A stretch of DNA of 64,000 bases from Candidatus Nomurabacteria bacterium (GTDB lineage: Bacteria > Patescibacteriota > Saccharimonadia > Saccharimonadales > Saccharimonadaceae). Below are positions 3,267 through 60,678 of this stretch, one piece after another. How positions within the stretch are numbered: the stretch's first letter is position 1; each line of letters begins with the position of its first letter. The notes under the pieces were generated by a model. It was not told the DNA's origin and did not search any database. It saw only the letters and a program-made list of their open reading frames with translations. The stretch spans positions 10,254 to 74,253 of the forward strand of contig JAISOF010000024.1 in assembly GCA_031275815.1 (NCBI GenBank). The letters run 5' to 3'. Made by a program: the position numbers and the translations under genes.

Positions 3267-4168
3267 TTAACTTTAATATTTCTGCCATCATTTTCACCCT
3301 GAGCTAGTGATTGAAAGTAATTATCGACTTTCTGGTGATAGCTTTTCCTATCATTCACGTTTGGAAAAAGTGGCTCACCAAAATTGAAATTGACTTCCAG
3401 CACCACGCTTTTGCCGGTTGATTTATTGGTCAAAATATCCAAGCCCGTGAACTCGCGCCCGACAGCACGCGCTGCGGCAATTGCGATGGGTTCCAATTCT
3501 TTCGGCAAGTCGACAAACTCGGAGTGGCCACCTCTTGCGATATTATTCAAATGGCTCTCTTCTGATTGCCGGATACGCTTATAAGACACAATGACTTTTT
3601 CGCCCGCCACAATCGTGCGATAATCAAAATCATTGGGCAAATAAGGCTGAATAATCGCGTCATCAAAACCCAAATTATCTATGTCGACAGCGCTACCAAC
3701 TTTCACGTTGTGGTTGCCGTTTTTGCCATCAATAGCTTTAACCACCAACGGAAAATCAAAACCCGCTTTTTCAATTGCCGCCAAATAATTCTTCCGGCTA
3801 CTGACATACAAACTATCCGCAACCGGCACACCCTCCAGCGCCATCACCACGTTTTGTTCCAACTTGGTCATGGTCTGAAAATTGAATGATTCCGAGTTTA
3901 CCACAGCAATTTTTTGCGCCCACAGATAAACCGCCAGCGCATGCCGAAGAGGCGCATTCTCCATCCCGCGCAAATACACCAAATCAAAATCCGTCAAGTG
4001 CCCACCATCAGCCAAAAAATCAATCTGCACAATATTATTTTTGATAACCACCATCAGCTCGTCATAACGCCGCGCCACGTACGTGTTGCCGACGTGCAAC
4101 CCATTCAAATTATTTGCCAAGCCTTCGCCCGACGGACTGTGCTGGCTGAGCAAAATCAAACAATTCAT
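3263..4168 (-). CDS. RimK/glutathione-synthetase-like ATP-grasp ligase
   Basis: 301-aa ORF. FPLVVKAIDGKNGNHNV, NNIARGGHSE and GLDIL...VVLEVNFNFG are present. It overlaps the upstream ORF by 4 nt and converges on 2040..3266 with a 4-nt overlap. Confidence 0.65.
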   Translation of the reverse strand: MNCLILLSQHSPSGEGLANNLNGLHVGNTYVARRYDELMVVIKNNIVQIDFLADGGHLTDFDLVYLRGMENAPLRHALAVYLWAQKIAVVNSESFNFQTMTKLEQNVVMALEGVPVADSLYVSSRKNYLAAIEKAGFDFPLVVKAIDGKNGNHNVKVGSAVDIDNLGFDDAIIQPYLPNDFDYRTIVAGEKVIVSYKRIRQSEESHLNNIARGGHSEFVDLPKELEPIAIAAARAVGREFTGLDILTNKSTGKSVVLEVNFNFGEPLFPNVNDRKSYHQKVDNYFQSLAQGENDGRNIKVN

Positions 4169-9001: not shown

Positions 9002-10036
9002 TCACGTCGTGGTTTTATTTGCTGTGCCATCGATTATTTTTCCAATGGATTTCAACCCGTCCAAATAAGCCCGCTCGACGCCGTCCATGGTTTTGACTTG
9101 GTATTTGCGGTATTCTTGTTCGGCTTTTTTGATGGCTTTTTGGTGGCTGATTTTACCAGCGTCCAGCAATTTGCCTTTGCCATAATTCACCGTGAACTTG
9201 TCCAGCTCTTCGACCCAATCACGCATTTTCATCTCGGCATGCGACCGTGCCTTGACCTCCGCCAAATCAAAAAACGCCGAAACCAAACGGTTTAGCCGAA
9301 ACAGCTCATCTTCGGTCAAATAATTCTTAGCAATTCTGACTTCGTCAAGTTCCGGCAAATCACCCCGAAAAACTGTCAAGCCCATAAAATCCTTCTCGGC
9401 GTCCGCTCGATTAAAAACAATCTCCGCCGCCGTCTGCTTACTGACAGCATAATGCAGTTTATTTTGCACCAGCTTGAAAAACTTAATCGACTCTTCGGAT
9501 TTCGGATTGTAGTCGACACTGAGAGCATACAAATCCAAAACTTGCCGATAGAGTGCTTTCTCGCTCGAACGAATATCACGAATCCTATCAAGCAATTCTT
9601 TCCAATAATTCCCACCGCCGTTGCCTTTCAGCCGCTCGTCGTCCATCGTGAAACCTTTGACAATATATTCATGCAACCGAGCCGTCGCCCACTGGCGGAA
9701 TTTGGTGGCAATTTGGCTGTTGATACGATAGCCGAGCGAAATTATCATATCAAGATTATAATGTTCGATTTGGCGGGAAACCTGACGTTTCCCCTCTGTT
9801 TGAACTGTTCGGATTTTCCGAACAGTTGCGCTTTCGTCCAGTTCGCCGTCGGCAAAAATATTCTTAATATGCTCGCTCACATTCGCCTTGCTCGAATCGT
9901 ATAGCTCGACCAACTGCGCCTGCGTCAACCACACCGAATCCCCCTCAATCTTCACGTCCACCTTCGCCACGCCGCCGTCCTGATAAATAACGATTTCGGG
10001 GTGGTTCTCGGCCGGATATGGTTCTGCTTTGCTCAT
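9002..10036 (-). CDS. RhuM-family protein
   Basis: 344-aa ORF. VWLTQAQLVELYDSSKANVSEHIKNIF...RQVSRQIEHYNLDMIISLGYRINS is typical of RhuM. Confidence 0.7.
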   Translation of the reverse strand: MSKAEPYPAENHPEIVIYQDGGVAKVDVKIEGDSVWLTQAQLVELYDSSKANVSEHIKNIFADGELDESATVRKIRTVQTEGKRQVSRQIEHYNLDMIISLGYRINSQIATKFRQWATARLHEYIVKGFTMDDERLKGNGGGNYWKELLDRIRDIRSSEKALYRQVLDLYALSVDYNPKSEESIKFFKLVQNKLHYAVSKQTAAEIVFNRADAEKDFMGLTVFRGDLPELDEVRIAKNYLTEDELFRLNRLVSAFFDLAEVKARSHAEMKMRDWVEELDKFTVNYGKGKLLDAGKISHQKAIKKAEQEYRKYQVKTMDGVERAYLDGLKSIGKIIDGTANKTTT

Positions 10037-10078: not shown

Positions 10079-12748
<2,670 letters not shown>

Positions 12749-13112: not shown

Positions 13113-14693
13113 CTATCGTCGACGTTTCAATGAATTTATTATATGCCGCAGCCATAACAATAAACGAGATTTTGACATCCATCTATACAATTTTTCGTGT
13201 TTTTCGGCAGTCTCTGGGTTACGAACTCCTTGCTTAATTTTGGATTCCGAGTGTTCTTGTTTCGGTCTTGTTGGCGCTTTAATCTCCGGCATAGCGAAGT
13301 ATTCTTTGACAATATCAATCTTCTCGTCATAATCACCCAATTCAGTTCCCGATTTTTTATGCCCATGCTCATCGAAATAGCCTTTTTTGCATTGTCGTCT
13401 GACACCGGATGAGTTTTCTATATATTTATCCCTTATATCATTTTTTGCCCATTGAATAATCTTATAGTTTGGATAGTCACTTTCTAATGATTTCCTTAAT
13501 CTAGTTTCGCCATCGCCATAGTCAATTAAGATAGCTGCTCGTCGAACCCCAATATCGTGTGCAAGTTTCAGTGATATATCAAAATTAGAATACCCTCCCA
13601 CGCCATACCCAAACAATGTAACGTTATCTGGTATCGCATTGTCAGAGCGAAGGAGCCCGACATCCTCTTGCCCCTCCACAAATAAAATGTCGTCGCAGAA
13701 AAATACCTCTTTTGCAATTTCATCCATCATGAATGGTTTTTGCCAATTATTGCCAGCATTTATCAGTTTCTCGTATTCCGAGGAAGCTTTAAGTGTATGG
13801 ATTTTTGCTTCATTGTCATTGTATTTTGTTACCTTATTCAATACAGCGCCATTTCTTATATATTCCCATACGACAAAATACGGTTCGTGGGTAGATATAA
13901 TTATTTGTTGCTTTTTAGCTTTTTCGGCAAGTAGTTTCACTAATCGCTTTTGGGCTAGTGGATGCAGACTTAGTTCCGGCTCGTCAATAACCAGAGGGAT
14001 ATTAGTGTATTGAATTAAATGACCCACTATGCGCAATATAGATATAACACCATCACCCAGAAAATCTGCACGATGTTTTATTGAGCCATTAGTGACATAT
14101 TCAACATATTCATAATCGTCGTTGGCTATAGCGAAAGATGTGAAATCTGGCAAGACTTGCTTAACTAAATTTATAAATTCATTGTATTTTGCTTGATCTT
14201 TTTCAATAGTTTGTAACAGCCCAGAAACTTCCACATCAGAATAATATGATCCACTATTTTCTATGCGACGTAATGAGTTACGTTGCGCACCTCTAAGTAG
14301 CTCGTTAGGGTCTCTATCCTTATTATTCACTCTTGCGTTCCAATGCCGCCTAGATGGAATAAACAAGGGATATTCTGAGTCATCTAACCTGTATGTGTCT
14401 GTCGCTATTAGTGTGTATGACGCTTCTCTAATAGGGCAGAGCTTACTTTTTATACAATCGTCATCACCAAAAATAGTAAACTCTGATGTTGAGTCATGGC
14501 TATATTCACTAGATCGTAAAGTGTCACCATTATGCTTCTGAAGCGCTTCCAAAAGGCTGGTTTTGCCAGAATTATTTTCCCCAACTATATAGGTAAGCCC
14601 TGAACCTAGCTCCCCGTTGGGGATAGCCAGCTTTAGCTCTTGTCGGGTTTTGAAGCTACGAAAATTTTGAAGTGTAAATTTGCTAAATTTCAT
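13113..14693 (-). CDS. OLD-family nuclease (N-terminal AAA/ABC-type ATPase plus C-terminal Toprim)
   Basis: Walker A is VGENNSGKTSLLEAL and Walker B is LVIDEPELSLHP. The Toprim-like region has FVEGQEDVGLL and ILIDYGDGE. I chose the start at MKFSKFTLQNFRSF (14693), which has a GGTGA SD. Confidence 0.7.
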   Translation of the reverse strand: MKFSKFTLQNFRSFKTRQELKLAIPNGELGSGLTYIVGENNSGKTSLLEALQKHNGDTLRSSEYSHDSTSEFTIFGDDDCIKSKLCPIREASYTLIATDTYRLDDSEYPLFIPSRRHWNARVNNKDRDPNELLRGAQRNSLRRIENSGSYYSDVEVSGLLQTIEKDQAKYNEFINLVKQVLPDFTSFAIANDDYEYVEYVTNGSIKHRADFLGDGVISILRIVGHLIQYTNIPLVIDEPELSLHPLAQKRLVKLLAEKAKKQQIIISTHEPYFVVWEYIRNGAVLNKVTKYNDNEAKIHTLKASSEYEKLINAGNNWQKPFMMDEIAKEVFFCDDILFVEGQEDVGLLRSDNAIPDNVTLFGYGVGGYSNFDISLKLAHDIGVRRAAILIDYGDGETRLRKSLESDYPNYKIIQWAKNDIRDKYIENSSGVRRQCKKGYFDEHGHKKSGTELGDYDEKIDIVKEYFAMPEIKAPTRPKQEHSESKIKQGVRNPETAEKHEKLYRWMSKSRLLLWLRHIINSLKRRR

Positions 14694-14793
14694 ATTTAAT
14701 TCACCAATCCTTTCTCGGTCGTACCCAAATAATTGTATCATAACTAGTCGGTTTTACGTAAAATCTTACCTTAGGAAGGTCTTGTCACATAAT

Positions 14794-17428: not shown

Positions 17429-18682
17429 TCAAAGATTGACATCGGATTCACCCTGATTTTCCACTGTTTTTTGAAACGAGCGGACAGTCTCCGTTGCACT
17501 GCCTTTACGAAGCCTTTGTTCTTGCTCATATATATATGAATGGACCTTCATTAGAGGAACATGGAAAAAACTGGCTGCACGTAAAGCTGCTTTCTGGATG
17601 TGTTCTGGCGCATTATTATTAATCATAATATAGTCTGGCATAATCGGTCTACCGGTTTCTGTTTCATATCTGGATAAGATAACTTCATTATAACCATAAA
17701 CATCTACTATGCTATTCAGTAAGGCGTCGGGGTCTTGCTGCGTAAGCCGACTGTCACGTCTGGTAGAAAACGTGCTAGCGTCCCTTGGGGCAACACCCAG
17801 TAAATCACCGTTATTGATGTGAGAAAATGCATACATTATTGGAGGGACTCTTATAGACAATTCACCACCGAGCCAGAAAAGATTATAATCGCTATCAATG
17901 TATGTAGTACATAAATAGTCATGCCTCCCTCCAAGAATAGGTCTCTTGCCACCGAACCTAAAAGTGTACTCTTCGTCATGCATTGTTAGCCATAAACTTG
18001 GGTCTACATAAAGGGCAGTAGCAGCAATGCTGTCCATTTCACGATGCGGCATGCCTATTGTATCAATATCCTGCAAATTCTTAACAGCGGGCAGGTATTT
18101 ATGATCATCCAAAATTCTATACAGCGTATTGTGGGCTAAAGTTTTGAATTTTAACCCTGTCAGGTCGTAAACTGTAACTTTTTCGCCATCGTCGGTTAAT
18201 ATTTCACCTTGACTGATGCCTGGCGTGTTTTGTTCTGCATTTTGTTTAAAATATTCGGCGGTGGAAAGCACGTCGTTAAATTTTTTCTCAACTTCTGGAA
18301 AACGGAGTTGTTGATTTTCGTACAATTCTTCTTTGAAAAAAGCCTCGTTTCTCTCTTCTTGCTCTTTCCTCTCAATTTCAATTTGATGCACTCGCTCTTC
18401 CCTTTCTGCTTCTCGCTCCGCTGACTCTATCTCGAACTTCCTATGATTGAGCTCTGCAGTTGCCTCAACGCCATATATGCTATACAAATATTGCTCCCAC
18501 CGTTTTTGGGCCTTTTCCTTCCGAAAAGTTTCTTTTCTCCGATAGGTGGGCGAGATGGTTTTAATAGTATGGATGATTTTTTTGCCAATTTTCTCTCTTC
18601 TTTTTAGTAACTCCCTTGTGTATGACTCAATATCGCTCTCGTCTTCACCCAATATCGATGGATAATAACCTATGGCAACCAT
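17429..18682 (-). CDS. Hypothetical protein (Glu/Arg-rich coiled-coil N-terminus, unknown C-terminal domain)
   Basis: 417-aa ORF. I recognise no motif. Confidence 0.55.
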   Translation of the reverse strand: MVAIGYYPSILGEDESDIESYTRELLKRREKIGKKIIHTIKTISPTYRRKETFRKEKAQKRWEQYLYSIYGVEATAELNHRKFEIESAEREAEREERVHQIEIERKEQEERNEAFFKEELYENQQLRFPEVEKKFNDVLSTAEYFKQNAEQNTPGISQGEILTDDGEKVTVYDLTGLKFKTLAHNTLYRILDDHKYLPAVKNLQDIDTIGMPHREMDSIAATALYVDPSLWLTMHDEEYTFRFGGKRPILGGRHDYLCTTYIDSDYNLFWLGGELSIRVPPIMYAFSHINNGDLLGVAPRDASTFSTRRDSRLTQQDPDALLNSIVDVYGYNEVILSRYETETGRPIMPDYIMINNNAPEHIQKAALRAASFFHVPLMKVHSYIYEQEQRLRKGSATETVRSFQKTVENQGESDVNL

Positions 18683-20389: not shown

Positions 20390-20418
20390 TTGACATTTGG
20401 TAACTATTATGCTACTAT
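20390..20418 (+). promoter_or_regulatory. Sigma70-type promoter TTGACA-17-TACTAT, 7 nt upstream of ATG 20426
   Basis: Read directly. The TTG 'start' of track ORF 20390 is in fact the -35 box. Confidence 0.6.
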
Positions 20419-20425
20419 AAGCGCT

Positions 20426-22453
20426 ATGGAAAGGTTTCCCACTGGAACGATTGAGTATGATATTCGTGAGCGGCTTAAAAACCGCTATGACGAGATTGTT
20501 AATCGGCAGTTGACGGTTGAGAATATTGATCATTATGCGGACGATGCGCTGGAGGATTTGATTAAGTTGTCGGACGAGATAGTTGAGATTCGGCGCAGCG
20601 ATGGGGCGATGGGTTTTGAGTCGCTGAGAGAGGAGGAGGATACGGCTTTTGCTTATTATGGGCTGGAGGATATGGAGGAGGCTTTGGAGCATATCATTAA
20701 GATCAGGGAAAACTTGATGTATATCGACGATTTCACTGGGCAGTCGCAGCCAGAACCGAGCTCAAGTTCAAATCCAAATCCAAATCTAAACCAAAACCCA
20801 AACCCAAACCCACCAATCGCCAATCAAGTCGAGCTTGGCGCCGATGAAAACGAACAGCCCGCCGCGCCAGAGTCCTGCCTCAAAACCACCTTACGCAACT
20901 TATCTTTGACCAGCGACCACGAGCAACTCACGCCAGAATCTCGCACCAAAACGGTGCTGTTTGTGTTGAAACAAGATTTTGGGATTGATTTTGACGATCC
21001 AGAGCAGGTGAGTATCACGCCAAACACTTTGGTCGCGCCGCTTACGCCAGATACTTCAACAAAGCCACCTGCCTTCAGTTACAATATGATTGAAATACCG
21101 GAATTGCAACGTATTGTGCTGGTTTGCGACATCAAGAGCTCCTCCACTTTTGTGCTGGATGAAGCGGCTTTGCAAGAAAAAAATATCACCCAGCAAGAGC
21201 TTGGCAAAATGCTCGATAAAGAAACTTTGAAAAATCTCATTTCTGAATATCCTGAGCTCGGCAGCAGACTTAGTTATTCCAAAAATTATGTTACCAGAAT
21301 TAAAAAACTGCTGGGCGGCGTGCCGGACGAGAAGGCTGAAGAGCTCGCTAATAGCACCGACATCGATAACGCATATCTGAACAAAGACAAACATAACGCT
21401 GGCGGTAGATATTACAATCGATTTAATCTGCCCGAAGGAGTGCTGACAGTCCATATGTTTGCTAAAAATGTTGGGTGTTTCGTGAACACCTTGAAAAGAT
21501 GGCTCCAAAAAAACTCCGAACTGGTGGGCGAAATCGAGACCTATTCGCTCGACCTTAAGGATGTTCCGTGTCTCACGCCCGAACAGCAACAATGCGTGTT
21601 GGATAATATGGAGTTACTTTCAGCTCCAAAGGCGCCAGAGGGTGTGATGTCAATCCTCCAGCTTGCGAAGAACAGCGGGTTGAGTTATTATCCCATATAT
21701 GATTATCTAAAAAATAACCGTGAAAATATAGGTGAACTCAAAAAGTTTAGATTTCACGATACCGCTGGTATTGGGCTTACCCCAGAACAACAGCAATACA
21801 TACTGGATAAGTTGACTGTTCCGGAGCCTCCAGAAGGTGCAGTGTCAGTCGAGCAGCTTGCGAAAAAAGTTGGTCGATCTTGCTACTCTATTACGCTTTG
21901 GCTGAGTAATAGCTCGGTGGGGGAGCTCAAGCGATATCGCCCTAAAGGGGAAGGAGGCTTTCCCGCTCCTTATCTCACCCCCGAGCAACAACAATATGTG
22001 TTGGATAATATAACGTTCGCCCCCGAAGACGGTGTGGTATCAATTAGTCAGTTTGCGGTAACTCATAAAATAGGACATTATACGTTGCATAAATGGCTAG
22101 CTGCCAACCCTCCAGAGGATGAGCTTAAATCATTCCAGTTCAGAAGTAGAACTGCGCTGGGACTTACTCCGAATCAGCAGCAATATGTGCTGGATAATAT
22201 AGATAGCATAAGACACCTTGTTCCTGCACCGCCAGATGGCGTGGTGTCACTTGTCAGTTTCGCAAAAGAAATCAGGACAGCTCACACAACGCTGACCAAG
22301 TGGCTAGCGGACAATTCTCAAGATACGGGTGAAATTGGAATATATCGGTTTGGCAAGATACCTGGTCGAGGGCTCACCCCCGAACAACAACAAATCATCA
22401 AATCCCGCCTCCACGAAATTGGGAGAAAGGCTTCAAAACCACCGGCGGATTAG
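20426..22453 (+). CDS. Repeat protein: low-complexity N-terminal region plus five tandem HTH-like modules of about 65 aa, each ending in LTPEQQQYVLDN
   Basis: Modules follow the pattern PEGV.S..QLAK..G.S..T...WL..N...GE...YRF....GLTPEQQQ(Y/C/I)(V/I)LD. An Asn/Pro-rich tract (NPNPNLNQNPNPNP) is also present. Confidence 0.65.
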   Translation: MERFPTGTIEYDIRERLKNRYDEIVNRQLTVENIDHYADDALEDLIKLSDEIVEIRRSDGAMGFESLREEEDTAFAYYGLEDMEEALEHIIKIRENLMYIDDFTGQSQPEPSSSSNPNPNLNQNPNPNPPIANQVELGADENEQPAAPESCLKTTLRNLSLTSDHEQLTPESRTKTVLFVLKQDFGIDFDDPEQVSITPNTLVAPLTPDTSTKPPAFSYNMIEIPELQRIVLVCDIKSSSTFVLDEAALQEKNITQQELGKMLDKETLKNLISEYPELGSRLSYSKNYVTRIKKLLGGVPDEKAEELANSTDIDNAYLNKDKHNAGGRYYNRFNLPEGVLTVHMFAKNVGCFVNTLKRWLQKNSELVGEIETYSLDLKDVPCLTPEQQQCVLDNMELLSAPKAPEGVMSILQLAKNSGLSYYPIYDYLKNNRENIGELKKFRFHDTAGIGLTPEQQQYILDKLTVPEPPEGAVSVEQLAKKVGRSCYSITLWLSNSSVGELKRYRPKGEGGFPAPYLTPEQQQYVLDNITFAPEDGVVSISQFAVTHKIGHYTLHKWLAANPPEDELKSFQFRSRTALGLTPNQQQYVLDNIDSIRHLVPAPPDGVVSLVSFAKEIRTAHTTLTKWLADNSQDTGEIGIYRFGKIPGRGLTPEQQQIIKSRLHEIGRKASKPPAD

Positions 22454-39666: not shown

Positions 39667-39821
39667 CTTTCCACCTCCGTTTTTTCAAAAAACCAAGAAC
39701 CAGTTGTTAAGGTACCTTTTACCAACTGCCCCCCCTCAGACGCGCCCGCAAAACTTCACATCTCTTTTTGCACTATACCACAATAACAACTCTTGGTCAA
39801 CAAAAACCCAAAAATCGACAA

Positions 39822-39831
39822 CCCCCCCCCC
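39822..39831. repeat. Poly-C (C10) tract inside a promoter spacer
   Basis: TCGACA (39815) - 20 nt including C10 - TAATAT (39841) - 6 nt - ATG 39853. Confidence 0.85.
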
Positions 39832-39852
39832 AATTCATGTTAATATAAACCC

Positions 39853-41115
39853 ATGAAACAGCTCAAACCCCTCCGCATAGCCATAGCAATCCTCATTTTC
39901 CTCAGCATTATCTTGCTAATGTTAGTGTCAACGTGGTCATCCGGCAGATTCTACGTCTATGCCTCCCTCGCGTCAATCATCCTTGCCCTCATTCTCACCC
40001 TCACCTATATCACCCTCGCCCGCAAACACACCAAAACCTCCAAAACCTTAACAACCGCTCCTTATGCCACCCTCAAAACTCTCGTCCCCGCCATCGTCTT
40101 CCTCATAATATATTCCCTGTCCTCTTTCGCGCCGTGCTCAACACTTTTCGGCTACTGTATCGTTTCCCCCAAAATGGTCGTTTTTGTTTTCTTGGGTCCT
40201 CTGGCTCTCATCATCACCATCATCATCGCCCTCGCCACCCACACTCCCCGCCCAAAAACCACACCAAAATCCAAAAAACTCCATCCAAAGAGCCTCGCCC
40301 CTATACCGACCCCACTATATAACCCGCGCCTAAACCTCTCCCCAATTCTCCCCCACATGCACCTCCACCGCCAACTTAACCGGCAAATCAGGAGCAATCC
40401 CCTCCATCGTCTTTTTCAAAATCTCCGCCACCCGCTCGGCATACTCTTTCGCGCACTCCACCATAATGGAATCATGGATTTGCAAAATCATCCCGCCCAA
40501 ATCACCAAGCTCCGCGTCCAACTTAATCATCGCTTTCTTCATCAAGTCCGCCTCTGTTCCCTGAATCGGCATATTAGTCGTCGCGCGTTTCGCCGCCTCG
40601 CGTACCACAAAAATCGGGGAGCTGAGATCCGGTGTCGGTCGTCGTCGCCCAAACAGCGTCTCCACAAACCCGTCCGTCTTCGCCTTTTCCAAAGTCTTAT
40701 CCATAAAATCCTTAATTGGCTTTCGGAGTTCAAAATAATCCTCAATAAACTGCGCCGCCGCCGCCCTGTCCATCCCCGTTGCCGCCGCCAACCCCGTCGG
40801 GCTCATGCCATAGAGCACCCCAAAATTGATGACTTTCGCCGCCCGTCGCTGCTCCTTGCTCACCTCTTCTATCGGCACCTTGAACACATCACTAGCAGTC
40901 TTGGTGTGCACGTCAACCCCAGAATTAAAATCTTGCATCAGCTGTTCATCCCCAGCCAGCGCCGCCGCCAACCTCAACTCAAACTGCGCATAATCCGCCG
41001 AGACAAACACTTTGCCGCCATCCGCCACAAAACAACTGCGAATCTGCCGCCCCGCGTCGTTGCGCACTGGAATGTTCTGCAAGTTCGGATTGACACTGGA
41101 CAACCGTCCCGTTGA
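39853..41115 (+). CDS. Hypothetical multi-TM protein; only the first ~159 codons (up to ~40329) look genuine, and the rest runs antisense through polA
   Basis: The N-terminus has 4 hydrophobic segments. After 40330 the composition becomes R/L/H/P/Q-rich, as in antisense shadow ORFs. Confidence 0.3.
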   Translation: MKQLKPLRIAIAILIFLSIILLMLVSTWSSGRFYVYASLASIILALILTLTYITLARKHTKTSKTLTTAPYATLKTLVPAIVFLIIYSLSSFAPCSTLFGYCIVSPKMVVFVFLGPLALIITIIIALATHTPRPKTTPKSKKLHPKSLAPIPTPLYNPRLNLSPILPHMHLHRQLNRQIRSNPLHRLFQNLRHPLGILFRALHHNGIMDLQNHPAQITKLRVQLNHRFLHQVRLCSLNRHISRRAFRRLAYHKNRGAEIRCRSSSPKQRLHKPVRLRLFQSLIHKILNWLSEFKIILNKLRRRRPVHPRCRRQPRRAHAIEHPKIDDFRRPSLLLAHLFYRHLEHITSSLGVHVNPRIKILHQLFIPSQRRRQPQLKLRIIRRDKHFAAIRHKTTANLPPRVVAHWNVLQVRIDTGQPSR

Positions 41116-49070: not shown

Positions 49071-49119
49071 TAAGTCATCAATAACTAGTTAGGTTGGGTA
49101 AAGAATGGAGGAGGTGCCA

Positions 49120-53064
<3,945 letters not shown>

Positions 53065-53125: not shown

Positions 53126-53153
53126 TTTACATTCGTTTTTGGTGTGTTATACT
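53126..53153 (+). promoter_or_regulatory. Promoter TTTACA-16-TGtTATACT upstream of the Pmp-like adhesin gene
   Basis: Read directly. A 44-nt leader follows, with GAAAGG 8 nt before ATG 53198. Confidence 0.45.
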
Positions 53154-53209
53154 ACTAATAGTTAGTTAATGTTAGGTAAGAGAGAAAGGCAACACTAATG
53201 CGATTCGCC

Positions 53210-53248
53210 AGAGAGAGAGAGAGAGAAAGAAAGAAAGAGAAAGAAAGG
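53210..53248. repeat. (AG)8 followed by degenerate GAAA/AGAA purine repeats
   Basis: (AG)8 plus A spans 53210-53226. This is followed by aagaaagaaagagaaagaaagg. Confidence 0.9.
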
Positions 53249-53270
53249 ATTCAAACTTCTCATTTCGGCT

Positions 53271-56114
53271 GTGTCAATTATCTTAATCGGCTCCCTAGCT
53301 CTCGTTTTTTATCGCTCCCTCTCCCCCACCAACGCTGTCGCCAATACTCAATATTTTACCGTACAAAACTCCAGCCAACTCAGCAATGCGCTGAGCCACT
53401 CCAGTTGGAACACTGACACGGAATTGGTGGACATAACCATAACAGACGATTTCGACATGAAGACCTCCACCACTTCGGTTTACCTCTGCACCAACGTAGC
53501 CATTCACTCCAATGACACCGTTCACACCCTATTGAAACCCACCACATTTTCCAGCACCGCACTAATCGAAATACGGGCTTGTCCTCAATCCCCAACCGTC
53601 GAAACTCCGACACTGGCTTTAAGCGACATTATCATTGACGGGAACCGTGCCAACTTCCCCGACGGCAACCCATCAACCCTGATTCGATTGATTGGCGGCG
53701 GGGACTTAACTCTTGATGACGGTGCAGTTTTGCAAAATAATTACAACACTTCAGACAACTCATCAAACTACGGCGGTGCAATATCCATGCGCGAACAATC
53801 AACGGTACGCATGCTGGGCGGAATAATCCAAAATAACTATACCACCAACGCTAAAGGCGGCGGGGCAATTTATATGCGGTCAGGCAAAGGTGCATATTTT
53901 GGCAACAGAACACCCAATAATTGTGACCAACACTTTCTTATGAGTGGTGGGAAAATCTTGGATAACACAGCCACTACCTCAGGAGGTGCCATTTATTATG
54001 ACGCCTATGATTGTCAAGGAAACTCCGTTGAAATCTCAGGTACCGCCGAAATCAGCGGCAACACATCTCACCAAACAGACGACGGTTCCGGTGGCGCGAT
54101 TTTTGCCACCAACCGTTTTGCCACTGTACTTGTTTCCGGCGACGCCAAAATCACCGACAATCACGCGGACGGGGGTGGCGGTGGCATCGCCATGAACACC
54201 AACCGGCTCACAGCTTTTTATAAGTACACGAACGATTTGGAGGGCGATTGGGAACTGGATTCAAATTATCTATACAGCGAGCACCCCGATTTAACCACTG
54301 AAGCGCAAGTCGGTGACTATTGCTCCGCGAATCATTATGCCACTCCGCAAAGACAAATTCGCTACCAAAGAGTAGCGCCAGAGCCCTCCCCGTATTATTA
54401 CTATATCACCAACACCATACATTGCACCTCTAACAACAACTATCGTGGGTTCTATCTGAGTGCTCTCGTGTCGCTTGATGACGCTCCGGATTTCAACAGC
54501 ACGCCAACAAAAATCATTATCTCCCCCGATTTCACCTTATTGCAACATTACTACTATTCTGACGGCGTACTCGACACCAGTATCAATCATCCGCCATTTT
54601 CTGTATGCACCTATAACATAGCTGGTCGCGATAAGTTTCAATTTTCCTCCGCCTTATGTGATTACAATCCAGATATGGCACCGCTATTAACAGTCGCTCC
54701 CCTGTCCGCCGATCTGTTCCACTTTGACATTAGCGGCACAGAATACCTCTCCGACCAAGCCCAATACTTGGAAATATCCGGCAACGCCACCATTTCCAAC
54801 AACACAGCCGGCGGTATCGGCGGAGGAATCAGATTGAACGGCACCATTTTCAATATGACGGGCGGACACGTTGACCACAACACGACATACCACATTGATG
54901 GTGGGGGTGGCATTAAATTGAACTCGGACGGCGCAAAAATCAATATCACCGGTGGCACGATGAATCACAACCAATCTCCAAACGGCAGTGGCGGAGCTTT
55001 CTCCATCAGCAAAAATCAGACGGCGAACATTAGCGGCAACACTGAGCTTGTGGGAAACCGTTCCGGCGAAAACGGTGGAGCGATTGACGCTGATTCGGAC
55101 GACGGATGGATGGATTTGAACATCAGCGGTGATGTGGTGATGGCTGAAAATAAGGCCACGTTGAGCGGTGGCGCAATCTTTTATCAATCACCAAAAGGGG
55201 CTTTGGAGGTGTCCGGCCAAGTTCAATTCACCACCAACGACGCCTTGATGTCTGGGGGCGCGATTTACACAAATGCCGAGAACGCGACGACGCAAATCGG
55301 AGGCAGTGTTTCGTTTAACGGCAACACAGCGGGCTATGGTGGCGCCATTTCCGTTTCCAAACCAAACTCCACATTGACCATTACCGAAAATGTGGTTTTC
55401 AACGAAAACTTTGCTACAGTTCGTGGTGGCGCAATAAACATGAATGCAACCCATCAGACCTTTTATATCTCTGGCAATGTGCGCTTTCAGGGAAACAAGA
55501 CCAACGGTGACGGAGGCGGCGTATGGCTAGCGCACAAAGATCTGGCAAACTTAACCGTCGGTCCTGACGCCGTTTTTGTTGATAATACCGCCGCTACCCT
55601 TCGCTCAATTCAGCCAGAAGACCAAGCGACCTATAATGAGCACGTTTTCGCTACAGCATGGTCGAACTCTTTGCCTAATGGTTACAATAATTATGATATA
55701 GCCTATATCAATGGTACAGAAAAAATAGTAGTAACATTTGAAAGTAACGGAGGCTCAACAGTGCCAACGGTGGTCATTGACAAAGGCAGCGCCCTTGCCA
55801 AACCCTCCGACCCGACCCGTGACGGATACGTTTTTGGCGGTTGGCACTCTGACGTTGACTTGATTTCGCAATATGATTTCACAAAAATCCTCCTCCAAAA
55901 CACCATCCTATTCGCCAAATGGTTGCCCACATGCGCGTGGGATTCCACAATCACGTCAAACGACCCCACCTGCACAGAGCCCGCCATTCCCAACACCGGC
56001 CTGTTCGGCATGACCAGTAGCACCGCCGCTCTGTTGTTCAGTACGACCTCTGCTGGCGCGCTAATCACCGTCTTTCTTGTCAGATACAAATTAGCAAAAG
56101 CCAAGCGCCGGTGA
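53271..56114 (+). CDS. Surface adhesin-like protein: Pmp/beta-helix GGA(I/L/V) repeats, Listeria-Bacteroides-type repeat, C-terminal IPNTG sortase-type sorting signal; start uncertain
   Basis: More than 12 GGAI/GGGI motifs. Also has GYVFGGWHSD...NTILFAKW. The C-terminus is IPNTG plus a hydrophobic stretch plus RYKLAKAKRR. The tracked start at 53271 is a GTG. The SD-preceded ATG at 53198 is out of frame by one AG unit. Confidence 0.7.
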   Translation: MSIILIGSLALVFYRSLSPTNAVANTQYFTVQNSSQLSNALSHSSWNTDTELVDITITDDFDMKTSTTSVYLCTNVAIHSNDTVHTLLKPTTFSSTALIEIRACPQSPTVETPTLALSDIIIDGNRANFPDGNPSTLIRLIGGGDLTLDDGAVLQNNYNTSDNSSNYGGAISMREQSTVRMLGGIIQNNYTTNAKGGGAIYMRSGKGAYFGNRTPNNCDQHFLMSGGKILDNTATTSGGAIYYDAYDCQGNSVEISGTAEISGNTSHQTDDGSGGAIFATNRFATVLVSGDAKITDNHADGGGGGIAMNTNRLTAFYKYTNDLEGDWELDSNYLYSEHPDLTTEAQVGDYCSANHYATPQRQIRYQRVAPEPSPYYYYITNTIHCTSNNNYRGFYLSALVSLDDAPDFNSTPTKIIISPDFTLLQHYYYSDGVLDTSINHPPFSVCTYNIAGRDKFQFSSALCDYNPDMAPLLTVAPLSADLFHFDISGTEYLSDQAQYLEISGNATISNNTAGGIGGGIRLNGTIFNMTGGHVDHNTTYHIDGGGGIKLNSDGAKINITGGTMNHNQSPNGSGGAFSISKNQTANISGNTELVGNRSGENGGAIDADSDDGWMDLNISGDVVMAENKATLSGGAIFYQSPKGALEVSGQVQFTTNDALMSGGAIYTNAENATTQIGGSVSFNGNTAGYGGAISVSKPNSTLTITENVVFNENFATVRGGAINMNATHQTFYISGNVRFQGNKTNGDGGGVWLAHKDLANLTVGPDAVFVDNTAATLRSIQPEDQATYNEHVFATAWSNSLPNGYNNYDIAYINGTEKIVVTFESNGGSTVPTVVIDKGSALAKPSDPTRDGYVFGGWHSDVDLISQYDFTKILLQNTILFAKWLPTCAWDSTITSNDPTCTEPAIPNTGLFGMTSSTAALLFSTTSAGALITVFLVRYKLAKAKRR

Positions 56115-56154
56115 CGTTAAAAACTCAAAGCCCGCTCCCCGATTGCTCGAAAGT

Positions 56155-56901
56155 CTATCCCCCCTCAACCTCAAAAACCACCGCACAATGATCGGACAAC
56201 CCCTCAACCAAACGTATCGAAACAAACCTGTACTCCTTTGAAAGCAACAAATGGTCATAGGCAACGCCGTCCTCCGGAAAGGAAACGTAATCTTGAAAAT
56301 CTGTTGATTCTTGGTACTTGTTCGCCCAGATGTCTTGATGTTCCAATAGTTGCTCGCGAGTTATATTGAAGTCGCCAATTATGATTTGGCTGTCGGTGTG
56401 GCGCAACAACTCATCAAGTTGTTGATATGAATTATGATTGGTCGCAAGATGAACATTAGAGATTTTCAGCCCAGACGCCAACTCAATATTTTGCACAAGT
56501 CGCACATGAAAATCCGGACGACCGCGCTCATCCTTTGGGGCAGGCTTTAGCACAAGCCCCTCATAGCGCCTAGCCACCGATTTTGACAAAACCCCCATTC
56601 CGTCAGTCAAATAATCATCAATATGCTCAATGAGCCCTTTTTCCCATTTTTCCGCCGTAGCAGCCGAAAACTTGTCAAATGTGTATTTTTCCGACATGTT
56701 CGCATAAACATACGGATACGGCTTTTTGAGCATCAAGTTAATTCCATCCGCAAGGTTGCTCTTGTCGTCAAAAGTCACCTCTTGCAGGCACACAACGTCC
56801 GCGTCCTCCTGCGAAAGAAAACCCGCAATGTCCGCTATCCGCTTTTGATAGTTCCGACCAAAGTTGCTCCGACCGGCGATGTTTAGTGAAATTATTTTCA
56901 T
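56155..56901 (-). CDS. Endonuclease/exonuclease/phosphatase (EEP) family protein
   Basis: Has MKIISLNIAG, VVCLQEVTF, GDFN and SDHCAV. Confidence 0.75.
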   Translation of the reverse strand: MKIISLNIAGRSNFGRNYQKRIADIAGFLSQEDADVVCLQEVTFDDKSNLADGINLMLKKPYPYVYANMSEKYTFDKFSAATAEKWEKGLIEHIDDYLTDGMGVLSKSVARRYEGLVLKPAPKDERGRPDFHVRLVQNIELASGLKISNVHLATNHNSYQQLDELLRHTDSQIIIGDFNITREQLLEHQDIWANKYQESTDFQDYVSFPEDGVAYDHLLLSKEYRFVSIRLVEGLSDHCAVVFEVEGG

Positions 56902-56919
56902 GGTTTTAACTTATGGTGT

Positions 56920-57007
56920 TGGCGGAAGAGAGAGGATTCGAACCTCCGTTGAGTTGCCCCAAACACGATTTCGAGTCGTGCGCCTTCAACCACTCGGCCA
57001 CTCTTCC
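56920..57007 (-). tRNA. tRNA-Ser (anticodon CGA), CCA encoded
   Basis: The acceptor GGAAGAG pairs with CTCTTCC. The anticodon arm is CACGA-CTCGAAA-TCGTG. There is a long variable arm, and the T arm is GGAGG-TTCGAAT-CCTCT. Confidence 0.9.
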
Positions 57008-60100: not shown

Positions 60101-60483
60101 GTCGCCACGTTCCCCGCTGTGTCAATTGACGATCCCGTCCCGCAGCCATTGATGGCATTGACAGTGGAAGCGTCCCACGTACTCAATTGATTAATCGTCG
60201 CCGTCACTGTCACCGTGCCACTGGTGGTGAAATTATAATTTGCCGTCCATTTCACCGTGTTGTTGGTCAGGACGTGTGTGGCGTCTTCGCCGATTTGCCC
60301 AGTGCCAACCTGTGTATCAGTCGCCGACACCAAACTTGCCACACCAGTATCCGCGGCCATCGCCTTCGGCAACGACCGGCGCCCCATCACAAACATCAGC
60401 CCGCCCACCAACAAAACCGCCGAAAAAACCACCAGCAATTTCGGAAAAATACGCTTATGTCCAAACGTCATAGCCGGTTTCAT
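57154..60483 (-). CDS. Large surface protein (Ig-fold/DUF11-like repeats, SdrD-B/Cna-B-type domain) with a Sec signal peptide and the shared C-terminal module
   Basis: The ATG at 60483 has an AGGAA SD 8 nt upstream. The signal peptide is MKPAMTFGHKRIFPKLLVVFSAVLLVGGLMFVMGRRSLPKAMA|AD. The Cna-B-like segment is VSGAVYKDVNGSGVFDGGDIGLSGLTVSL...GAYRFSDLSSGTYSV. The track ORF extends in frame to 60657 through the (TC)19 tract. Confidence 0.75.
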   Translation of the reverse strand: MKPAMTFGHKRIFPKLLVVFSAVLLVGGLMFVMGRRSLPKAMAADTGVASLVSATDTQVGTGQIGEDATHVLTNNTVKWTANYNFTTSGTVTVTATINQLSTWDASTVNAINGCGTGSSIDTAGNVATCVMSGNAGEVKPWGLSATVLGANGATVQPTFTDSAGVSPVVPTAVTLVASRAQYDVATYNTYPTRMPATGGDTGLNIGVVFVVKSPLVDGGVLGLEPLTSPMSFTVNTASIPDPSAWTIKGCSAGVSTGNSAIPNYIGSGVSNYYRPGTTSCVKAVDGQSVTITFSDSYTGGTKYPSKSSTGYLLTEAFYADVRLDINVPLASLSTTPANVVLTATPLVATTLSGGPVSSSVIGSQSYALSSKPSFGGDLHVLQATENLSPNVNLPGWINGYANGQPILPSTDIRLNVSLSVTGPTGFVVENPWGCLVMRPNSLELLKEGFFRQAVLQALPSVIEYGVFSNNPPVSTVCGVAGDGAPGWYATLAEAQNAGVVNAVRYKLTGVLDGQQFTSGNSPWFSVDVKSPPNGVVGTALTDGTPIQALWAAGADNIDRVSSSYPARMIATSVVSSNKISVTKSSLLAGETQTVSILPTLTSTVNTTTTVIETVTLSADLAYVSGSARFGGVGVTEPTTTINSDGTTTLVFNLGVLAAGQTNALTFDVNVAPTAVMPTTATITALVDTSSSAALAQTTMRTAAVSFNVAAPPATFAVVQSQSLATIQPGMEQVYTFSHVNTTNSVVTGLTAIDVLPYSGDVNGSTGITGYTVSSLSATGAVTNFYYTTSLAVRNDPTGAVTWVAACVACELPAGVTALKWTTAQMASNTSLQVSFKLTKMTADNGATINNALTVLDSSFTSTITNSALMSAVFKKSSVSGAVYKDVNGSGVFDGGDIGLSGLTVSLVKGDATVATTVTDLNGAYRFSDLSSGTYSVTVATPANMVTNGNTAEDINLLTGVGLSNQNIGFEDLIIALYVSPNPLSLKAASTSGTVSGSIDLTTATNNPLGYRLGLSTADNRLVCLSPSAFINSVTGTGISLADNTWGYKISDETPTSWNEIPMTITNVKSTSAAAKLGDVTKLYFGVKVNLAVPDCDYSGMVMVTAVGNI

Positions 60484-60532
60484 ATCAAGTTCCTGCTTTC
60501 GTCGCGAACCAGCCGGTGCAAAAATCGCAACC

Positions 60533-60575
<43 letters not shown>

Positions 60576-60648
60576 GGCGCACGCAAGCCAACACCGCCCT
60601 GCGCAAATCAAGACTCCTTCGCAACTTACTCTTCCATAACATAATTAG

Positions 60649-60678
60649 ATTATACATAACCAGTTAACTATTTGTCAA
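60649..60678 (-). promoter_or_regulatory. Consensus promoter TTGACA-18-TATAAT, 6 nt upstream of ATG 60642
   Basis: The minus strand reads TTGACAaatagttaactggttatgTATAATctaattATGttatgg. Confidence 0.6.

Follow-up and report, generated by a model that had tools for sequence, protein, structure and literature searches.

The window analyzed here is a stretch of 64 kb, on a contig of 84,732 bp, from a metagenome-assembled genome (MAG) of Candidatus Nomurabacteria, an uncultured and ultra-small member of the candidate phyla radiation (CPR; locus tags beginning with LBQ02_). It contains a long gene for a Pmp-like adhesin whose reading frame is one position out of step with the ATG at its head, and a short AG dinucleotide tract lies between that ATG and the region that would encode the signal peptide. 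The features of this gene, given in window positions as are all coordinates below, are the following; SD denotes a Shine-Dalgarno sequence, and OFF and ON denote tract lengths that place the adhesin out of frame or in frame with the ATG.

53126-53153, plus strand: promoter-like site, TTTACA, 16 nt spacer and TG-extended TATACT (10/12 consensus matches, TG before the -10)
53157-53179, plus strand: leader motif AATAGTTAGTTAATGTTAGGTAA, present also in the leader of the gene at 49120 (49080-49101)
53184-53189, plus strand: SD-like GAAAGG, 8 nt spacer to ATG 53198
53198-53200, plus strand: start codon ATG in the context ATGCGATT (Met-Arg-Phe), a context found also at gene 49120
53198-53416, plus strand: out-of-frame product of the ATG as assembled, 72 codons (OFF read-out)
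53199-56114, plus strand: open adhesin frame, 971 codons, +1 relative to ATG 53198
53210-53225, plus strand: (AG)8 dinucleotide tract, the proposed slipped-strand switch, beginning 9 nt after ATG 53198
53226-53248, plus strand: degenerate purine tract (AAAG)3 AG (AAAG)2 G, in the ON frame the Lys/Arg-rich n-region KERKRKKG
53256-53342, plus strand: signal-peptide hydrophobic core LLISAVSIILIGSLALVFY and probable AVA-N cleavage site (cleavage site judged by eye)
55731-55919, plus strand: Flg_new (Listeria-Bacteroides repeat) domain, residues 845-907, E = 3.3e-14
55986-56111, plus strand: sorting-signal-like C-terminal tail of IPNTG, hydrophobic segment and KLAKAKRR (by eye)

Three promoter-like sites were found around the adhesin start, against a shuffle mean of 1.1, and the one listed (TTTACA-16-TGtTATACT) lies 45 nt upstream of ATG 53198. 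This gene and the one at 49120, the two repeat-headed genes on the plus strand, have the leader motif and their first eight coding bases in common, a likeness that is to be read as a similarity and not as an independent test because the search pattern for the motif was built from the two leaders themselves. The start region reads ATGCGATTCGCC and then (AG)8, and ATG 53198 shares a base with TAA 53196-53198, the stop codon that bounds the adhesin frame on its upstream side. From this ATG translation reads MRFARERERERKKEKER and ends after 72 aa at TGA 53414-53416. The adhesin frame itself has no other lesion, and the first ATG, GTG or TTG within it is GTG 53271, which falls inside the hydrophobic core. 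A preliminary description of the locus had already reported the SD-preceded ATG and its shared context, the two overlapping frames with their limits, and the GTG in the hydrophobic stretch as the only canonical start of the long frame as assembled, and all of these were reproduced.

What would a change in tract length do? When the tract was rebuilt in silico, 6, 9 or 12 AG units fused ATG 53198 to an open reading frame (ORF) of 970-974 aa, and loss of one AAAG unit or gain of two likewise restored the adhesin frame. With one AG unit added, the N-terminus becomes MRFAREREREKERKRKKGFK (11 Lys/Arg, 4 Glu), followed by LLISAVSIILIGSLALVFY and RSLSPTNAVA-NT, and, as judged from the sequence, it is only this frame-restored product that has an n-region of net charge +7, an h-region of 19 residues and the AVA-N site; the earlier claim that the signal peptide appears only on the gain of one AG unit or the loss of two agrees with the simulation. 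The gene thus has the make-up of a simple sequence repeat (SSR) phase-variable gene: one repeat of a non-triplet unit lies inside the reading frame just 3' of the start codon, and a change of a few units toggles between a full-length product and a truncated one (72 aa with 8 units). As the gene has a single usable ATG, one of the three frames is ON. An (AG)n tract codes for (Arg-Glu)n, and a (CT)n tract for (Leu-Ser)n, in all three frames, and such tracts can therefore be tolerated before or inside signal peptides; (Arg-Glu)n, moreover, is uncharged net in every frame, so that the length of the adhesin tract could drift without spoiling the signal peptide.

The adhesin carries Chlam_PMP repeats (Pfam PF02415, E = 8.6e-19; TIGR01376, E = 1.7e-15), with 14 motifs of the GGA[ILV] type (GGA/GGG[ILVF]) and 7 FxxN motifs. 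Its tail, read by eye, consists of IPNTG, 27 mostly hydrophobic residues (LFGMTSSTAALLFSTTSAGALITVFLV) and a basic RYKLAKAKRR, and two homologues (P0002 and P0003) end similarly in VPNTG, a hydrophobic segment and a basic tail. The preliminary description had called the protein a Pmp-like, LPXTG-type adhesin. The first half of that name is borne out by the repeats, while the second can be kept as a resemblance only, because the motif is IPNTG and the curated NCBIfam LPXTG model TIGR01167 gave no match to the adhesin at E <= 0.01. Pfam at the same threshold returned only Chlam_PMP and Flg_new and no autotransporter beta-barrel, and the adhesin therefore falls outside the chlamydial family of Pmp autotransporters. 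Taken together, the Pmp repeats, the Flg_new domain, the ON-frame signal peptide and the IPNTG tail predict that the adhesin is surface-exposed.

Is ATG 53198 the true start, or could the annotated one be right? Both PGAP and IMG start the adhesin at GTG 53271 (MDR2063677.1, 947 aa), and if translation began there, or at the in-frame ATT 53262, the length of the tract would be irrelevant. In keeping with such a start, many genes in the window have no obvious SD, and the last bases of the purine tract form an SD-like AAAGGA upstream of both codons, at a distance of 12 nt from ATT 53262 and of 21 nt from GTG 53271; the latter distance is too great for the GTG. We considered ATT 53262 as a start and rejected it. 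The GTG lies in the middle of the hydrophobic core, and its product, which begins MSIILIGSLALVFY, has no charged n-region and is left with an h-region of 12 residues, whereas the region 53226-53270 is open and encodes a textbook n-region in the adhesin frame only. Furthermore, in a BLASTP comparison of the long frame with P0002, its nearest homologue (33% identity), the alignment begins at RKRKKGFKLL, residue 5 of P0002 and 16 residues upstream of GTG 53271. This leads to two conclusions: that the PGAP start truncates the signal peptide, and that coding constraint goes back to the repeat, in a stretch of the adhesin frame that no start codon in that frame serves. SD use in the window is only moderate, so that the missing SD at GTG 53271 is a weak argument; the strong arguments are the homology and the logic of the signal peptide, and on these we regard initiation at the GTG as very unlikely.

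If ATG 53198 is the start, the two frames might still be joined without any change in the DNA, by a programmed +1 frameshift or by transcriptional slippage. The frames overlap for 72 codons, a +1 shift anywhere before 53414 would work in principle, and a rare AGG codon follows the tract. However, there is no known +1 site of the prfB type or of the type in which a hungry codon has an upstream SD, transcriptional slippage requires long homopolymers and no run of A in this region exceeds 3, and the only slippery heptamer, T TTT TTA at about 53306, shifts in the -1 direction and lies inside the h-region. The other repeat-headed genes in the window, moreover, are simply in frame. Recoding is accordingly an explanation to which we attach next to no probability. 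We also considered and rejected -1 slippage at the heptamer, and recoding of UGA (code 25); all long ORFs are intact under table 11.

The reading that we prefer, and to which we give a probability of roughly 70%, is that the locus is a slipped-strand translational switch caught in its OFF state. The switch would consist of (AG)8 and the adjoining AAAG units, which, within the 5' coding region, separate ATG 53198 from the signal peptide. The gene would be transcribed from its own promoter and translation would begin at the SD-preceded ATG; with 8 units, 72 out-of-frame codons would be read up to the stop and the adhesin would not be exported. Slippage during replication that added one AG unit, or removed two AG units or one AAAG unit, would bring the ATG into frame, and the ON product would then carry the signal peptide described above, Pmp-type beta-helix repeats, Flg_new and the putative IPNTG anchoring signal. 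The anatomy of the start, the frame arithmetic and the homology of the N-terminus set out so far are observations, as are the discrepancy at the edge of the repeat and the one-unit polymorphism in analogous loci to which we turn below; from them we infer that the adhesin tract really switches, and at a useful rate.

The adhesin tract is one of four AG/CT tracts in the window, of 8 to 22.5 units, each of which stands at the 5' end of a large gene. The other three, all of them downstream of promoter-like sites, are the following.

49131-49163, plus strand: (AG)16.5, after an SD in the arrangement GGAGGAGG-N5-ATGCGATTACC; in frame (ON)
12592-12636, minus strand: (TC)22.5, preceded by the promoter-proximal ATG 12748 and followed by the signal peptide of a surface protein of the IPT/TIG type; in frame as assembled
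60537-60574, minus strand: (TC)19, after a perfect TTGACA-18-TATAAT promoter and before AGGA and ATG 60483; it precedes the signal peptide of a protein with an SdrD_B domain

In dinucleotide-preserving shuffles 0.01 matches to (AG)>=6 are expected per window, and 44 overlapping matches were found, all in these four tracts. There are no AG tracts of 5-7 units in the window, so the length distribution is bimodal and the four long tracts do not represent the upper end of a random one. The purine (AG) strand is the plus strand at all four tracts regardless of the orientation of the gene, which with n = 4 has a probability of about 1/8 and is not significant; GC skew is negative over the whole window. 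Both minus-strand genes have a hydrophobic, signal-like N-terminus in their translations. The gene at 49105-53064 on the plus strand, referred to above as the gene at 49120 (1,314/1,319 aa; PGAP chose an internal Met 56 codons downstream, giving 1,263 aa), is of another kind: its only domain is a GNAT domain at the C-terminus and it has no signal peptide. Homologues of its C-terminal 400 aa are about 60-69% identical and only 260-560 aa long. Its product, probably cytoplasmic or perhaps an effector, seems to be under the same kind of switch. The presence of at least four repeat-headed genes in 64 kb suggests that they form a group of contingency loci through which the cell surface is varied.

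Does the tract vary in length in the sampled population? An independent assembly is available in the Logan contigs of run SRR14710916, which match the window at 18,307 of 18,308 bases; Logan assembles with k = 31 and keeps k-mers with an abundance of at least 2. Two of the contigs, L001 (12,510 nt) and L002 (2,000 nt), are identical to the window. The third, L175 (3,798 nt), spans 53209-57006 and is identical at 3,797 positions; its sole mismatch is its terminal base, at 53209, the base directly before the (AG)8 tract, where it has G instead of C. The contig thus reads G(AG)8AAAG, with a repeat longer by at least half a unit, and ends there. Since there is no single-nucleotide polymorphism (SNP) in the other 18.3 kb, a variant in repeat length is a more economical explanation than a point mutation. 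The terminal base and the contig end hint at a longer allele, and two co-existing alleles would also account for the break in the assembly graph at this point. The 16-kb contig of L001 stops at 49155, 25 nt into the AG tract (33 nt long) that heads the GNAT gene; this end may reflect repeat k-mers common to other long tracts, low coverage or length heterogeneity.

The same data bear on the view that the assembled sequence is simply wrong, that is, that the true tract is in frame, for example as (AG)9, and that the MAG is 2 nt short, so that there is no OFF state. A MAG consensus can err in repeats, and the G that precedes (AG)8 in L175 implies that some reads carry a longer tract. On the other hand, a repeat of 16 nt, far below the length of a read or a k-mer, does not normally cause assembly errors, the MAG and the Logan contigs otherwise agree at all but that one base, a de Bruijn assembler needs reads with C(AG)8 in order to output it, and a break exactly at the tract fits two alleles whereas a single allele should have been assembled through. 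The break and the mismatch fit heterogeneity better than simple error, without proving it, and an artefact is in our judgment unlikely. Further look-ups were uninformative: two guessed partial GNAT products, tried as a route to a Logan contig upstream of the tract, returned no record; a homology search with the GNAT C-terminus gave no fragment of 100% identity, its own cluster being missing as well; and variants of neighbouring genes with alternative starts were absent from the collection. Neither the adhesin nor the 72-aa OFF product had an exact match in the contig index, and a metagenome scan for the exact 26-nt flank of the tract gave 0 matches, so no other sample in that collection has this allele.

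Loci of similar construction were sought in metagenomes with the pattern ATGCGATT-N3-5-(GA)7, which returned 54 loci. Since ATGCGATT was partly imposed by this pattern, its wider conservation is not statistically established. In a subset of the 54, what comes immediately after the tract is a signal peptide and then a protein of 1,300-2,500 aa, and each of the three possible frames is represented in this subset: 1. in frame with the ATG (L130, L142 and L174); 2. in the +2 frame, which has another ATG, 13 or 16 nt upstream (L127/L157, L129, L134, L141, L153, L167 and L092); and 3. in the +1 frame, closed by the TAA of the cassette itself (L131, L155, L158 and L171). The pair L130 and L131 are 99.8% identical over 1,994 nt with a single GA unit as their only indel, and that unit toggles a signal-peptide ORF of 2,327 aa in or out of frame. 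Tract length also distinguishes the members of three further near-identical pairs, L128/L164, L159/L160 and L139/L154. Among these loci a length of 15-19 nt is common, and tracts of 7-9 units head intact giant ORFs; the 8 units of the adhesin gene are therefore not unusually short and fall within the working range.

These comparisons also bear on whether the adhesin gene is a young pseudogene or a switch locked OFF, its tract decayed and the gene recently inactivated for good. The adhesin is out of frame in the consensus, and its tract is the shortest of the four and the only impure one. Yet the 2.9-kb frame has no second lesion, and 971 codons would remain open by chance with a probability of about 1e-20, which argues against an old pseudogene in particular. 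The G-to-A interruptions form the Lys/Arg n-region of the ON frame and look selected rather than decayed, the analogous loci place intact giant ORFs behind tracts of 7-9 units, and a variant was found at the very edge of the tract in the Logan contig. We consider permanent inactivation to be quite unlikely.

Several observations count against a working switch at ATG 53198. Its tract, being the shortest of the four and interrupted, may slip at a low rate; two annotation pipelines place the start at the GTG; the databases hold no close orthologue of the adhesin (the best match is the 33% identical one); and the moderate SD use in the window leaves room for SD-less initiation elsewhere. Length heterogeneity at the adhesin locus depends on one terminal base of one contig, and this G could also be a C-to-G SNP, stutter of the polymerase chain reaction or a contig-end error. 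Set against these are the alignment with P0002, which reaches upstream of GTG 53271, the three further tracts in the window, the discrepancy at the repeat edge in the Logan contig and the analogous loci, all of which back the apparent OFF phase proposed in the preliminary description.

Could the adhesin switch be one member of something much larger? We suggest tentatively, and with rather more doubt than conviction, that in CPR/Patescibacteria, and perhaps in DPANN archaea, modular start cassettes with dinucleotide repeats phase-vary batteries of giant surface proteins, the adhesin at 53198 being one member in its OFF state. Such a cassette would consist either of a common leader, ATGCGATT (Met-Arg-Leu/Phe) and (AG)n, or of a promoter-proximal ATG and (CT)n, and in some lineages it would be conserved on both sides of the tract, with ATGs in two frames and off-frame stops. 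A two-sided cassette, ATGCGATTAAC-(GA)n-TAGAAGCTCCCTCTAAAAA, was in fact observed at the head of many different giant signal-peptide proteins (L127, L129, L130, L131, L134, L141, L142, L153, L155, L158, L167, L171, L174 and L092); off-frame TAG or TAA stops follow directly after its tract, and its second ATG, 13 or 16 nt upstream, is in another frame. At the level of the mRNA, the GA tract could form base pairs with a block of pyrimidines, CTCCCTCT.

A second scan, of genome contigs with the loose pattern ATGCG-N3-9-(AG)8, returned matches that, among those listed, came mostly from unrelated bacteria; the informative ones among the matches listed were L059 and L070 (Saccharibacteria), L092 and L069. 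In the two Saccharibacteria loci among the matches listed an SD is followed by ATGCGATTCACC(GA)n. L069, likewise among the matches listed, is in a Nanoarchaeota MAG (JAUWPB010000012.1), where ATG 2897 begins ATGCGTTC(AG)8 in frame with a protein of 369 aa, whose membrane-anchor or signal segment comes immediately after the tract; this DPANN locus has the same layout in another lineage of ultra-small episymbionts. Four more loci (L021, L050, L111 and L118) have common flanks around ATGCGT(T/C)C(AG)n or ATGCGTATG(AG)n, with 17-21 units; one is labelled Saccharibacteria and the others 'bacterium' or Gammaproteobacteria, and their tracts are apparently within a gene.

A different arrangement is found in the SdrD_B gene of the window (60483-60678, minus strand), in which (TC)19 lies between a promoter with a promoter-proximal ATG and the internal AGGA and ATG. 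The gene for P0002 (L176, 100-370) is laid out likewise: its leader ORF contains a CT tract of about 17 units and ends 13 codons ahead of the SD and the main ATG. Depending on the frame, this ORF would stop 39 nt before that ATG, inside the SD or overlapping the ATG (ATGA); a second homologue of the adhesin had no tract in the 66 nt of sequence examined. The layouts of these two genes suggest a second mode of repeat control, one that would act through an upstream ORF.

The window holds other repeats. Runs of C11, A8 and C9 (14794-14837) lie about 50-95 nt upstream of a minus-strand gene for an AAA_15/AAA_21 ATPase (start 14741), and a C10 run (39822-39831) lies in the intergenic region 39667-40329; these homopolymers are possible promoter-level repeats. 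A hexanucleotide repeat of about 7 CAAACC-like copies (20769-20812) is in frame within the ORF 20390-22453 and would be expected to vary the length of the protein, not its phase. The IPT/TIG gene is flanked by a RhuM-family gene (9002-10036, minus strand) and the ATPase gene, which is AbiEii-like (13113-14741, minus strand), and may be part of a small variable or defence-type island. Elsewhere the window has the content of an ordinary chromosome, with CTP synthase, Pol I, YchF, MscL and tRNAs.

Attachment to host cells is believed to be the way of life of CPR bacteria. If giant surface proteins in this group are indeed switched by repeats, their attachment surface would be turned ON and OFF stochastically, as in Helicobacter, Neisseria and Mycoplasma, and as tract lengths can be counted in existing metagenomic reads there would be a direct handle on surface variation in the CPR. 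Should the wider proposal of a cassette-borne system also hold, it would amount to an undescribed phasome, with which these obligate episymbionts might bet-hedge host attachment or phage escape. There is a lesson for annotation as well, in that pipelines chose a downstream GTG in the adhesin gene and an internal Met in the GNAT gene, and start calls of this kind hide such switches and lead to mis-predicted localisation. We found no literature linking SSR phase variation to CPR, Patescibacteria or Saccharibacteria, and the paper that comes closest describes a surface protein of Gracilibacteria with a 9-nt repeat that is in frame, which is a different phenomenon (PMC6851277). The mechanism itself is textbook and its occurrence unsurprising; what would be new, as far as the literature found goes, is the host group, and the value of the observations lies there, in the apparent density of four loci in 64 kb and in the conserved cassettes of relatives.

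The closest parallel is with Helicobacter pylori, whose adhesin genes have CT repeats in the 5' coding region in which slippage by one unit sets the frame (PMC3960876). In oipA/hopH, hopZ, babA/B and sabA, as in the adhesin gene described here, the start codon is separated from the main part of the adhesin by a dinucleotide repeat. The H. pylori CT repeat encodes (Leu-Ser)n in the signal-sequence region, and the two minus-strand genes of the window have an (Leu-Ser)n tract likewise, a repeat that is tolerated in that region. The proteins are not homologous, however. The coding-strand unit of the adhesin gene is AG and not CT, giving (Arg-Glu)n in the n-region, and in place of a proteobacterium with a beta-barrel outer membrane protein there is a Gram-positive-like host from the CPR with a putative anchor of the sortase type. 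Some Chlamydia pneumoniae pmp genes also vary, by the length of a poly-G tract; with the chlamydial Pmp proteins the adhesin has the GGA[ILV]/FxxN passenger-type repeats in common and nothing else, as it is without the autotransporter beta-barrel and ends in an IPNTG sorting-type signal. In plan it resembles those LPXTG substrates that carry Flg_new or InlB B-repeats, having (with the frame restored) a signal peptide, Flg_new and a tail of motif, hydrophobic segment and basic residues, although its motif is IPNTG and that of its homologues VPNTG. Finally, the tetranucleotide repeats of Haemophilus influenzae lic1 and lic2A and the CTCTT repeats of Neisseria opa also lie just after the start codons of genes for surface structures. 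Such contingency loci occur several to a genome, as they appear to do here, although the repeat unit and the organisms differ. The lic loci have multiple ATGs, and in this they are matched by the related cassettes that have ATGs in two frames upstream of the tract.

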